Positions 8,854-17,009 of a stretch of DNA of 64,000 nucleotides are shown in pieces. This DNA is from a virus (taxonomy: Duplodnaviria; Heunggongvirae; Uroviricota; Caudoviricetes). The notes under the pieces are model-generated. The model did no database searches, had not been told where the DNA came from, and saw only the letters and a list, made by a program, of their open reading frames with translations. Position numbers and translations under genes: made by a program. Location of the stretch: positions 53,051 through 117,050 of IMG/VR virus record IMGVR_UViG_3300012347_000482; one strand, given 5' to 3'. The stretch's first letter is position 1, and each line of letters starts with the position of its first letter.

Positions 8854-10245
8854 ATGAGAGCAAGAGAATTTATTATCGAGTATGACCGCGGCATGACCCT
8901 CAAGTCATGGGAGCAGAAACTAACCGCACGAATGGCTAGTGATGAATCGGCACCTGGAACTATTGACGAAATTATGGAAATGATTGAGTCAGCTGATCCA
9001 ACAAGAAACAAAGTATATGCGCAATGGATTGTCAAGCGATATGTTGCTGGAGATTTTGCTGCTAGTGATCTTGATCAAGTGAATTTGCGATTGACTGATT
9101 ACGATAGTGTGAAGAAATCACTAACTACGGGTAAAGATATTAATCAGTTGACTTATGCACAACTGCCCGATCTTATACAAGCAGGCAAGGCACAAAAAAC
9201 AGCACCCAAATTTGAAATCATACCTGACACTGAAGTGCTGTATAATGGCCCAGATGGACAGTTAGCCGTGCCCAAAACTGAAACTGCAAGTAGGGCATTG
9301 GGTAGCGGTACTGCTTGGTGTACTGCGTGGACTAATAGAGACACAATGTTCGATCATTATAATTCAAGTGGTGACATTTATACGTGGAGAGCTAAGAATG
9401 GCAATAAATTCCAATTTTTCTGGGGTAAAGATATTCAATTCATGAATTCGGCAGACTTGCCGCTATCTCCAAAAGATATGCATTTTTACAGATCAATCAA
9501 TCCTGTAACTGCTCCTATATTTGCTAGAGAAGAACAGAAAATTCTTAACTCACGCAATGCAAATAGAATTATAAAACTTATGACTGCACTTAATAAATCG
9601 AGTATTAAGCTAGAAATTCCAATAGAACTTCTGAAAAAAAATCATAAGATAGCATACCATTATGCCAAAGAGATCATTGGAGGGCGATGGCTAACAGGCG
9701 AAGCGGTAATTGCATCTAATGCCACCTCTTCATACAAGTATGCCAAGGATGTTATTGGAGGGCGATGGCCAAAAGGCGAAGCGGTAATTGCATCTAATGC
9801 CGGCGTTGCGTATAAGTATGCCAGGAGTATTATCAAGGGTCGATGGCGAAAAGGCGAAGCGGTAATTGCATCTAATGCCGGCGTTGCGTATAAGTATGCC
9901 AGGAGTATTATCAAGGGTCGATGGCGAAAAGGCGAAGCGGTAATTGCATCTAATGCCGGCGTTGCGTATAAGTATGCCAGGAGTATTATCAAGGGTCAAT
10001 GGCCAAAAGGCGAAGCGGTAATTGCATCCAACCCTTTCGTTTCGTTCATTTATGCTAGGGATGTTGTTAAGGGGAGATGGCCAGCGGGAGAAGCTGCTAT
10101 TGCAACTAGTTCCCATGCTTCGTACATTTATGTTACGGAAGTTGTTAAGAAGCGATGGCCAGCGGGAGAAGCGGCGATTTCTAGTGACTCGTGGTCCGCA
10201 AAAATTTACGATCAGCAGTTCGGTACTAACTTAGCTAAGCAATAA
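8854..10245 (+). CDS. repeat-protein family member A1 (type-A N-domain + 26-aa repeats + FGTNLAKQ tail)
   Basis: MRAREFIIEYDRGMTLKSWEQKLTARMA...GSGTAWCTAWT...YTWRAKNG.KFQFFWG; about nine RW(P/R)xGEAVIAsn..v.YkYA repeats; ends KIYDQQFGTNLAKQ. Confidence 0.85.
   Translation: MRAREFIIEYDRGMTLKSWEQKLTARMASDESAPGTIDEIMEMIESADPTRNKVYAQWIVKRYVAGDFAASDLDQVNLRLTDYDSVKKSLTTGKDINQLTYAQLPDLIQAGKAQKTAPKFEIIPDTEVLYNGPDGQLAVPKTETASRALGSGTAWCTAWTNRDTMFDHYNSSGDIYTWRAKNGNKFQFFWGKDIQFMNSADLPLSPKDMHFYRSINPVTAPIFAREEQKILNSRNANRIIKLMTALNKSSIKLEIPIELLKKNHKIAYHYAKEIIGGRWLTGEAVIASNATSSYKYAKDVIGGRWPKGEAVIASNAGVAYKYARSIIKGRWRKGEAVIASNAGVAYKYARSIIKGRWRKGEAVIASNAGVAYKYARSIIKGQWPKGEAVIASNPFVSFIYARDVVKGRWPAGEAAIATSSHASYIYVTEVVKKRWPAGEAAISSDSWSAKIYDQQFGTNLAKQ
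9697..10086 (+). repeat. 78-bp tandem DNA repeats (5 copies, 3 near-identical) encoding the 26-aa protein repeat
   Basis: GGCGAAGCGGTAATTGCATCTAATGCC... unit recurs at 9697, 9775, 9853, 9931 and 10009. Confidence 0.85.
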
Positions 10246-10274
10246 CATACATATAACAGAAGCATTATACTTAG

Positions 10275-10299
10275 TAGGCTCTTCGGAGCCTATTTTATT
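10275..10299 (+). terminator. intrinsic terminator (copy 3 of 3 identical)
   Basis: TAGGCTC-TTCG-GAGCCTA followed by TTTTATTG. Confidence 0.8.
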
Positions 10300-15281: not shown

Positions 15282-15308
15282 CATAAATATCGTATCTAAG
15301 GAATATAC
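15282..15308 (+). promoter_or_regulatory. late-promoter-like leader
   Basis: TAACATAAATATCGTATCTAAGGAATATACATG. Confidence 0.5.
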
Positions 15309-17009
15309 ATGAGAGCAAGAGAATTTATAGTTGAATACGACCGCGGCATGACCCTCAAGTCATGGGAACAAAAATTAACAGCCCGTATGGCTAACGATCA
15401 ATCGGCACCCGACACCGTTGATGAAATTATGGGAATGATTGAGTCAGCTGACCCTACTCGCAATAAAGTATATGCGCAATGGATTGTCAAGCGATACGTA
15501 GCTGGAGATTTTGCTGCTGATAATCTTGATCAAGTGAATCAACAGTTAACAAATTACGATAAGATTAAAAAATCACTAAACGACCCAATACACAAAGATA
15601 TTAACAGATTAACATATTCACAGTTGCCGGATATTATTAAATTAGGACAAACAAGTAAGTCACAGCCAAAATTTGAAATTATTCCAGATACTGAAGTATT
15701 GTATAACGGCCCAGATGGGCAATTAGCCGTGCCCAAAACTGAAGAAGCAAGTAGGAAACTAGGTAGTGGTACTGCTTGGTGTACAGCATATACTGATCGG
15801 GACACGAGGTTTGACCATTATAATTCTACCGGAAGGATTTACACATGGAGAGCCAAAAATGGGGATAAGTTTCAATTTTTCTGGGGGGACGATATTCAAT
15901 TTATGAATTCAGCCAATAAACCACTATCTCCAAAAGATATGCATTTCTTTAAGGAAATTAATCCTCCGACAAAGAAACTGTTTGACAAGTACGAAGATTT
16001 ATTTAAAAATAAACCCGAAAAAGCATTAGATTACGCAAAGGCACTTAACCAACCATTCCCTGCCGGCGAAGCTGCTATTGCAACAGACAAAGATGTTACT
16101 TGGAAATATATGGTCTATGTACTTAAAAAGCATCACTCTCCATCATGGGAGAATTTAATTAAAGATAACCCCGAATTATCATTCGACTACGCGTATGTAC
16201 TTGACCAACCATTCCCTGCCGGTGAAGCTACTATTGCAACAGACAAAAAAGTTGCTTGGTATTACAGTTCTATGCTTCTTACAAAGCATCACTCTCCATC
16301 ATGGGAGAATTTAATTAAAAATAAACCTGAATTATCATATCTCTATTCGAAGGCACTTGACCAACCATTCCCTGCCGGTGAAGCTGCTATTGCAACAGAC
16401 AAAGATATTACTTGGAACTATATGTCTGAAGTACTTAAAAATCATCACTCCCTATCATGGGAGAATTTAATTAAAAATAAACCTGAATTATCATATCTCT
16501 ATTCGACGGCACTTGACCAACCATTCCCTGCCGGTGAAGCTGCTATTGCAACAGACAAAGATATTACTTGGAACTATATGTCTGAAGTACTTAAAAATCA
16601 TCACTCCCTATCATGGGAGAATTTAATTAAAAATAAACCTGAATTATCATATCTCTATTCGACGGCACTTGACCAACCATTCCCTGCCGGTGAAGCTGCT
16701 ATTGCAACAGACAAAGATATTACTTGGAACTATATGTTCTATGTACTTAAAAATCATCACTCCCCATCATGGGAGAATTTAATTAAAGATGATCCTGAAT
16801 TATCATTCGACTACGCGTATGCAATCGAAAAAAGATTTATTCTTGGAGAACCTGCTATTGCAAACAGTGATTACGACGTAGCATACGATAAAAAATTCGG
16901 TACAAATCTTTCTCAACAGCCTACTCAACAGCCTACTCAACAGCCTACTCAACAACGTAACCCATTATGGAATCGAGTTAAATCGATATTTCGTACAAAC
17001 CGAAATTAG
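15309..17009 (+). CDS. repeat-protein family member A3 (expanded 52-aa double repeats; C-terminal QPTQQ extension)
   Basis: MRAREFIVEYDRGMTLKSWEQKLTARMA...GSGTAWCTAYT...; five ALDQPFPAGEAAIATDKDITWNYM...HHS.SWENLIKNKPELSYLYS units; FGTNLSQQ followed by QPTQQPTQQPTQQRNPLWNRVKSIFRTNRN. Confidence 0.85.
   Translation: MRAREFIVEYDRGMTLKSWEQKLTARMANDQSAPDTVDEIMGMIESADPTRNKVYAQWIVKRYVAGDFAADNLDQVNQQLTNYDKIKKSLNDPIHKDINRLTYSQLPDIIKLGQTSKSQPKFEIIPDTEVLYNGPDGQLAVPKTEEASRKLGSGTAWCTAYTDRDTRFDHYNSTGRIYTWRAKNGDKFQFFWGDDIQFMNSANKPLSPKDMHFFKEINPPTKKLFDKYEDLFKNKPEKALDYAKALNQPFPAGEAAIATDKDVTWKYMVYVLKKHHSPSWENLIKDNPELSFDYAYVLDQPFPAGEATIATDKKVAWYYSSMLLTKHHSPSWENLIKNKPELSYLYSKALDQPFPAGEAAIATDKDITWNYMSEVLKNHHSLSWENLIKNKPELSYLYSTALDQPFPAGEAAIATDKDITWNYMSEVLKNHHSLSWENLIKNKPELSYLYSTALDQPFPAGEAAIATDKDITWNYMFYVLKNHHSPSWENLIKDDPELSFDYAYAIEKRFILGEPAIANSDYDVAYDKKFGTNLSQQPTQQPTQQPTQQRNPLWNRVKSIFRTNRN
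16046..16835 (+). repeat. 156-bp tandem DNA repeats x5 (last three near-identical)
   Basis: Unit starting CATTCCCTGCCGG(T/C)GAAGCTGCTATTGCAACAGACAAAGAT... recurs at ~16051, 16213, 16369, 16525 and 16681; QPTCAA-type 15-bp x3 microrepeat at 16914-16958. Confidence 0.85.

Follow-up and report, generated by a model that had tools for sequence, protein, structure and literature searches.

Does the number of repeat units in two related phage genes change between closely related genomes, and if so, by what process? The genes, referred to here as 8854 and 15309 after their first nucleotides, lie in the window, by which we mean the whole 64,000-nucleotide stretch analysed (positions 53,051 to 117,050 of IMG/VR record IMGVR_UViG_3300012347_000482, Caudoviricetes). 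The window has a GC content of ~37%, encodes an RNA ligase, a DNA ligase, a ribonucleotide reductase large subunit, tRNA-Arg and tRNA-Met, and comes from a large uncultured phage. Both genes belong to a set of ten tandem plus-strand paralogues at 8.8-25.3 kb. The leader MRAREFI[VIF]E starts nine of the ten, the tail YDxxFGTNL[AS]xx-stop ends seven, and three types of N-terminal domain are found among them, while all share C-terminal repeats of ~26 amino acids (aa) with the consensus x[FW]PxGExAIAxxxxxxxxYAxxxxxx, whose variable positions are concentrated at particular sites of the repeat. We found gene 8854 with three, two and one copies of one repeat unit in related assemblies. Taken as a whole, the observations are probably best explained by recent in-frame duplication of units through mis-pairing, in proteins with a putative virion-associated binding function.

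The protein encoded by 8854 consists of the leader MRAREFIIE, a type-1 N-terminal domain, seven 26-aa solenoid repeats and an FGTNLAKQ tail. The features that matter here are the following:

8854..10245, plus strand: paralogue gene of 463 aa, from the list of open reading frames (ORFs); the identical protein is P0107 in the protein collection.
9697..10242, plus strand: array of seven in-frame 78-bp units, from the unit table, pairwise differences and Tandem Repeats Finder (TRF), with the register set from the GEA codon.
9771..9997, plus strand: perfect period-78 tract of 2.9 copies with the unit GEAVIASNAGVAYKYARSIIKGRWRK, from a 149-nt exact run at offset 78.

TRF reported the array with period 78, 4.5 copies and 93% matches at 9681-10028, followed by a more diverged continuation to 10179. 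The earlier note had described five 78-bp units, three of them virtually identical, at 9775-10086. The repeats are real, but there are seven units, and the range given spans only four of these: 9775-9852 and 9853-9930 are identical (0/78 nt differences), 9931-10008 departs from this pair by 2 nt, both nonsynonymous, and 10009-10086 already differs at 23/78 nt. All units other than the first three of these differ at 17-48 of 78 positions. Two minus-strand ORFs (9660-9992 and 9730-10116) were rejected as genes, being by-products of the stop-free repeat.

All copy numbers given here were taken from metagenome assemblies (MEGAHIT with k127 and k141, and SPAdes; the assembler of the window is unknown), and an assembler working from short reads may get the number of copies in a perfect tandem repeat wrong. 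Three ENA metagenome contigs are the nearest relatives among assemblies, two of 261 kb and 60 kb in one sample and a third of 28 kb in another; they are 95-97% identical to the window in the flanking regions. A JGI contig, 145,656 bp in length, carries the window proteins P0107, P0007 and P0110. In the 90%-identity protein cluster of 8854, the three members measure 463, 437 and 411 aa, a 26-aa ladder that corresponds to three, two and one copies. At the nucleotide level, the 8854 genes of the window and of contig L001 (sample ERZ22666098) are separated by one 78-bp gap, inside the array. L001 in turn shows 0 mismatches to contig L007 (sample ERZ22666230 of the same project) across the 5,006 bp of L007, and again one 78-bp gap separates them. 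The order of units is U0-A-A-A'-U4-U5-U6 in the window, U0-A(D)-A-U4-U5-U6 in L001 and U0-A-U4-U5-U6 in L007, and the tract at 9771-9997 is the copy-variable core of the gene. The claim that the array varies in copy number was therefore borne out by alleles in otherwise identical or near-identical sequence: within the limits of assembled data, copy-number variation of 8854 between related genomes is supported.

Similar length steps were seen elsewhere in the family. Between the orthologous genes P0001 and P0002, which share 92.9% identity, there is one clean 75-bp indel, P0021 (502 aa) and P0139 (476 aa), from more distant lineages, are one 26-aa unit apart, and P0146, P0022 and P0145 (332, 384 and 436 aa) form a ladder of two-unit, 52-aa steps. 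These comparisons support the view that copy-number variation is general in the family. As a control, we considered seven paralogues with diverged units, which have equal lengths in the window and in L003, a related 261-kb genome, and whose ratios of nonsynonymous to synonymous substitution (dN/dS) of 0.14-0.24 indicate real genes under constraint. Nucleotide identity between adjacent units is 28-63% in the eight other paralogues versus 71-100% in 8854 and 15309. Since the paralogues with diverged units keep equal lengths, length variation tracks the identity between units, the outcome that homology-dependent slippage or unequal exchange would lead one to expect.

The second gene, 15309, carries an array of larger units:

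15309..17009, plus strand: strain-specific paralogue gene of 566 aa, an ORF absent from L003 and from the protein collection.
16065..16844, plus strand: array of five 156-bp di-units, from unit comparison and TRF.
16298..16737, plus strand: near-perfect period-156 tract of 440 bp, 2.8 copies with 1 mismatch, from exact runs of 53 and 230 nt at offset 156 and from half-unit difference matrices.

Its protein has an N-terminal domain as in 8854, five 52-aa di-units, the sequence FGTNLSQQ and a 30-aa extension. Each di-unit combines an A half (GEAAIATD..HH) and a B half (SWENLIK..PFPA), which are two diverged 26-aa repeats; TRF reported period 156, 4.9 copies and 91% at 16038-16806. Five 156-bp units had been described, and five were found, but the last three had also been taken as nearly identical (16369-16835), which overstates their likeness. 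The units at 16377 and 16533 are the sole identical pair (0/156 nt differences), whereas the fifth unit, at 16689, differs at 29/156 nt, all beyond its first 49 nt. One nucleotide separates the B half of unit 2 from those of units 3 and 4. The near-identical tract at 16298-16737 is consequently shifted in register relative to the units and consists of B2-A3-B3-A4-B4 plus the first 49 nt of A5.

In both genes, then, there are adjacent units that are identical at synonymous and nonsynonymous sites alike (0/78 and 0/156), with exact runs of 149 and 230 nt, in agreement with the proposal of recent expansion or contraction. The tandem nature of the repeats and their recent origin are confirmed. Searches of the collections of proteins, viruses, metagenomes and genomes found no orthologue of 15309, and for this gene we infer unit-number variation only by analogy with the family. 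Exact look-ups of the 15309, 8854 and P0007 proteins in the gene-position index gave no entry. The 15309 protein is also absent from the protein collection, though its neighbours from the 145,656-bp JGI contig are present; we read this as a database gap that says nothing on copy number.

Variation at this locus also involves entire genes, and two stretches of sequence flanking 15309 are important in this respect:

15255..15336, plus strand: left conserved gene boundary (3' end, intergenic region and 5' start); positions 5519-5600 of L003 align here and to 17161-17242.
17161..17242, plus strand: right conserved gene boundary flanking the 15309 indel, from the same alignment of L003 5519-5600 and from the boundary sequences.

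A conserved boundary consists of FGTNLAQ-stop, an intergenic region with CATAAATA, and the ATG that begins MRAREFI. The whole of 15309 is missing from L003, where a 1,906-bp indel between conserved boundaries corresponds to one gene plus its intergenic region, and the equivalent of window position 15336 is fused straight to 17161+82. In total, window 12408-14079 and ~15337-17242 are absent from L003 (genes of 398, 138 and 566 aa). Conversely, there are extra paralogues upstream of the 8854 orthologue, three in L001 (541, 402 and 510 aa; 5382-9887) and at least two in L005, and L003 has an extra type-2 paralogue (619-2808) at the place that corresponds to window 10866/10873. Conserved boundaries, inside the paralogue array, are also where the SPAdes contigs of ERZ4200885 end. 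Together, the changes in repeat units and the gain and loss of whole paralogues point to a locus that is plastic at two nested levels.

Upstream of the start codons we found the conserved sequence CATAAATATCGTATCTAAGGRATA (7 matches in the window vs 0 expected). A 24-nt element, CATAAATAWCRTATCTAARGRATA, ends 2-3 nt 5' of the start codons of the paralogues, with 7 matches vs 0 expected, on the plus strand at 10876, 12408, 14070, 15282, 17188, 21079 and 24031. It looks like a late-type promoter joined to a ribosome-binding site, and it is a recombination substrate in whole-gene gain and loss. The late promoter consensus of phage T4 is TATAAATA, and the CATAAATA upstream of each paralogue, about 27 nt before the ATG, resembles it.

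A probable course of events is that neighbouring units of near-identical sequence pair out of register when the DNA is replicated or recombines homologously, by replication slippage or unequal crossing-over, and that whole units are thereby gained or dropped, which would lengthen or shorten the solenoid and leave its fold intact. Homology drives the same kind of change one level up: whole paralogues are gained or lost between conserved boundaries, and 15309 is one such strain-specific copy. The proteins would be expressed late and associated with the virion, the repeat surface would bind a host or phage partner, and repeat number together with the variable positions would be what diversifies. 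In-frame variable number tandem repeats (VNTRs) occur in repeat-domain proteins such as bacterial surface proteins and viral ankyrin or leucine-rich repeat families. Like these, the present arrays have units of 78, 156 and 12 bp that are all multiples of 3 and lie inside intact ORFs, head-to-tail arrangement, near-identical neighbours, alleles that differ by whole units, and stability once the units have diverged. They differ in belonging to an uncharacterised phage family, in the 26-aa two-helix repeat and in the variation of whole genes. The mechanism, with its VNTR-type repeat in a solenoid, is an ordinary one, found here in an uncharacterised family and at an unusually dynamic locus.

Several points weigh against this explanation. 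The perfect periodic tracts, at 227 and 386 bp, are longer than k-mers and reads usually are; the window may therefore have wrong counts, and an allele difference may reflect a choice made by the assembler. Length heterogeneity within a population is conjectural, the data being assemblies. For 15309, the missing orthologue mentioned above counts here as well. Neither the N-terminal nor the C-terminal domain convincingly matches Pfam, NCBIfam or the PDB, and in the one homologue with an experimental virion link, gp205 of the Pseudomonas jumbo phage PA5oct, the C-terminal half has no 26-aa PxGExAIA repeats and no FGTNL tail.

The first of these points leads to the alternative that short-read assemblers collapsed or over-expanded the repeats and that the real genomes share one copy number, which we regard as unlikely. 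The perfect tracts are indeed longer than both k = 127-141 and reads of 150 nt, L001 and L007 come from one project and are otherwise identical, as if one population had been assembled twice, and the SPAdes contigs of ERZ4200885 break within the paralogue array. Against this, three independent assemblies all show the duplication itself. A single-nucleotide polymorphism tells the two copies in L001 apart, and no exact repeat there exceeds 72 nt, which is less than the assembler's k; a trivial graph collapse is therefore unlikely, and a de Bruijn graph would not trivially turn the two-copy form into the one-copy form or the reverse. Moreover, the 75-bp indel between P0001 and P0002 falls between units that differ at several sites, and unrelated clusters from JGI, ENA and NCBI show ladders with 26- or 52-aa steps as well, several of these on more than one contig.

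A comparison of 8854 with its L001 orthologue bears on a second alternative. Divergence along the gene is mosaic: synonymous divergence (dS) is 0.335 in the N-terminal domain (8854-9650) and 0.017 in the repeat region (9650-10245), with a switch near 9350-9400. The dN/dS of the N-terminal domain is 0.10, and of the nine changes in the repeat region seven are nonsynonymous. The low dS of the repeat region next to the high dS of the N-terminal domain implies that either the repeat region was exchanged recently or a paralogue converted the N-terminal domain. This mosaic history shows that recombination is active and, together with the chimeric unit 5 of 15309, would fit old, fixed repeats that concerted evolution by gene conversion, or selection, holds identical at a stable copy number. 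We nevertheless consider that account quite improbable, as alleles with differing unit numbers exist, identity at synonymous sites excludes selection at the protein level as the cause, and gene conversion requires the same pairing that yields unequal exchange. Programmed hypervariation by a diversity-generating retroelement or a site-specific recombinase, instead of passive slippage or recombination, has next to no probability in our view: variable sites are concentrated at particular repeat positions and nonsynonymous changes outnumber synonymous ones among the few substitutions of the repeat region (7 vs 2), but alleles differ by clean in-register whole-unit indels and not by targeted substitutions, and no reverse transcriptase was seen among the few genes scanned, in a scan that was not exhaustive and included no template-repeat search. 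Recent duplication of units by mis-pairing accordingly remains our preferred explanation.

Besides its array, 15309 stands out by its 3' end, for which three features are relevant:

16912..16954, plus strand: perfect 12-bp microsatellite of 3.6 copies encoding QQPT repeats, from TRF (100%), the sequence and comparison of 3' ends.
16920..17009, plus strand: 30-codon C-terminal extension, unique in the family, from a tail census, the AlphaFold2 (AF2) model and the lack of similarity to paralogues and related loci.
17163..17189, plus strand: decayed relic of a paralogue 3' end, FDTNHKQQ-stop, followed by the canonical intergenic element, from three-frame translation; similarity resumes at ~17178.

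A QPTQQ microrepeat after the usual tail had been noticed before, and it is indeed there, as a coding (QQPT)n repeat of a 12-bp unit (x3.6, 100% identity) that directly follows FGTNLSQQ and begins at the usual stop-codon position of the paralogues. Among the 22 family hits with the tail motif, 18 stop exactly 3 residues past FGTNL and none goes beyond 6 (two 778-aa fusion proteins matched the tail pattern at an unrelated internal site only), while the 15309 protein runs on for 32 residues, 30 codons beyond the usual stop. The predicted local distance difference test (pLDDT) score of the AF2 model is < 50 at residues 539-552 and 561-566, and the extension is predicted to be partly disordered. 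To the earlier note it looked like a stop-loss readthrough. It is derived, in that relatives lack it, but what it translates has no relation to the canonical intergenic sequence: 16920-17177 showed no similarity to the paralogues, their flanks or related loci, and canonical sequence resumes only at 17163-17214, with intergenic similarity from about 17178. Because the codons of the extension are unlike the canonical intergenic region, a simple stop-to-sense change does not account for them. Judged from sequence comparison, the extension reflects a replacement of the 3' end or an insertion, together with growth of the 12-bp microsatellite, and no point stop-loss. One may speculate that a 1-nt deletion (CGATAA to CGTAAC) could explain the lost stop, but the sequence downstream does not align to canonical flanks.

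The unusual 205-bp spacer 3' of 15309 also contains a long hairpin at 17082-17124 on the plus strand (GACTGCATGTAA...TTACGTGCAGTC, with a nested 5-bp stem). It lies inside the part of the spacer, up to about 17177, that is unlike any paralogue or related locus, and the 225-nt region has a folding z of -2.65 against shuffles.

What kind of protein is subject to this variation? The AF2 model of the 15309 protein, built on a 14-sequence alignment, has a mean pLDDT > 90 over approximately residues 230-530, and the C-terminal repeats are confidently predicted to form an alpha-helical solenoid with one short and one long helix per 26 aa. Foldseek with the full model gave no match in the PDB below E = 0.1 (best 0.16), the top matches all being importin, ARM, HEAT or designed helical repeats. 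The regular solenoid of two helices per unit in the model is shared with ARM and HEAT proteins, although there is no significant match and no Pfam repeat model. The ARM/HEAT period is ~40 aa, longer than the 26 aa found here. Sequence and profile searches of the PDB gave 0 hits, NCBIfam gave none, and neither did a relaxed Pfam search with the N-terminal domains. PHROGs gave matches to the unknown-function families 28193 and 17056 only.

We rejected the Pfam model HTH_35 (PF13693), the source of the JGI name 'lambda repressor-like regulator', whose 36.9 bits for the whole protein are a sum of partial matches to model positions 21-53 of 75, with no single stretch passing. The Pfam models wHTH-Calcineurin_assc, InlJ_IG and DUF7173 were rejected for the same reason: each is a sum of partial repeat matches without a passing stretch.

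The N-terminal domain belongs to a large family, with at least 3,508 representative clusters (50% identity) found by phmmer at E <= 1e-3. The domain of 8854, 12435, 15309, 19513 and 21106 has the motifs DPTxNK and GTxWCT and no Pfam model, and it is weakly like a 'PcfJ-like' phage protein (E = 5e-4). In BFVD, it is found fused to other repeat classes, for instance in proteins of other viruses that bear the annotations 'ankyrin repeat protein' and 'leucine-rich repeat protein'. Among the further searches, megablast of 8854-17009 against 50,697 phage records gave no match, scans of IMG/VR and of GTDB genomes found nothing, and the sole match in a scan of JGI metagenomes was the 2.7-kb contig L002.

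The sole experimental link to function comes through PA5oct gp205 (QCG76086.1). The N-terminal domain is 36% identical to it over 91% of the query, Foldseek against BFVD gave E = 1.6e-16, and its leader, MKLFEVF, is similar. There is one match per PA5oct-type genome in the phage collection. The protein is annotated 'structural protein, ESI-MS/MS' (PMC7318152), the paper itself containing nothing specific on gp205. PA5oct has a prohead scaffold/protease, gp152.

The leader is not confined to the paralogues. Its generalised form M[RKS]xx[EQKD][FVLI][ILF]x[ED] was found at 16 ORF starts (of 559 candidate starts), all at 2820-31322 of the window and none at 31-64 kb; examples are MRAREFIVE, MRIYEVITE, MKIFEVIQE, MSISKLIIE, MKIREIITE and MRVHEFITE. 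The leader-bearing ORFs include non-homologous proteins, and the L003 orthologue of ORF 25341 is flagged Glyco_hydro_19. The internal proteins of T4, which are much smaller than the proteins described here, offer a parallel. The T4 capsid targeting sequence is MKTYQEFIAE (PMC8442874), and the T4 internal proteins are a diverse set with only the leader in common (PMC3012670). As in T4, a short leader, with an EFIxE core and an (I/L)-x-E site, precedes diverse, clustered proteins in the window. The likeness spans only ~9 residues, and cleavage by the prohead protease, packaging in the head and ejection are candidate properties here, with indirect support from gp205 in the virion proteome of PA5oct and from gp152. 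On the virion link of PA5oct gp205, the CATAAATA element and the leader common to 16 ORFs, we base the lead, not a result, that the proteins are expressed late and possibly packaged in the head, the solenoid serving as a variable binding surface. A more far-reaching and doubtful idea is that 8.8-29 kb is a hyperplastic arsenal of capsid-targeted, ejected proteins, the jumbo-phage counterpart of the T4 internal proteins. The leader would target the proteins to the head and the solenoids would be target-binding effectors, for instance against host defence, whose reach and specificity would be tuned through 26-aa units and whole genes by homologous recombination, with the N-terminal domain coupling variable binders to a common function.

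Some further observations were made in and around the paralogue array. In the paralogue at 17215-19428 (plus strand), the FGTNL tail is lost, four GYF_2 domains stand in its place (Pfam E = 1.8e-43), and the leader contains a duplication, FIVES-FIVES. The 656-bp gap between genes 8854 and 10902 holds a full-length match to the Rfam family RF01718, Polynucleobacter-1 RNA (10364-10513, plus strand; 89.1 bits vs gathering 37, E = 1e-17), and the gap (10249-10866) is 98.9% identical in L003. The sole description of this RNA motif is that of Weinberg et al. 2010 (PMC2864571), and the presence of the motif in a phage paralogue array may be a hint to the function of the motif or to the host. A PPPLP proline-rich repeat is present at the C-terminus of ORF 27015-28154. 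Further downstream, at 39066-39606 and 41352-41712 (plus strand), a second repeat system of diverged 72-bp (24-aa) tandem units with 67-77% identity lies in two adjacent large genes (754 and 767 aa); it is unrelated to the solenoid repeats, matches PHROG 22899, and looks like BspA-type leucine-rich repeats. Lastly, tandem repeats of 27 and 33 bp (87% identity) are found at 55580-55708 (plus strand) in ORF 54951-55817, where they encode Gly/Met/Pro-rich units.

For the family, it follows that arrays of this kind are unreliable in short-read assemblies, and that a protein length given in a database is best taken as one allele. As strain markers, the arrays would serve well for this phage lineage, whose locus evolves fast both at the level of the repeat unit and at that of the whole paralogue. 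If the proteins are injected effectors, then a change in repeat number would be a cheap way of retuning the surfaces with which the phage interacts with its host.

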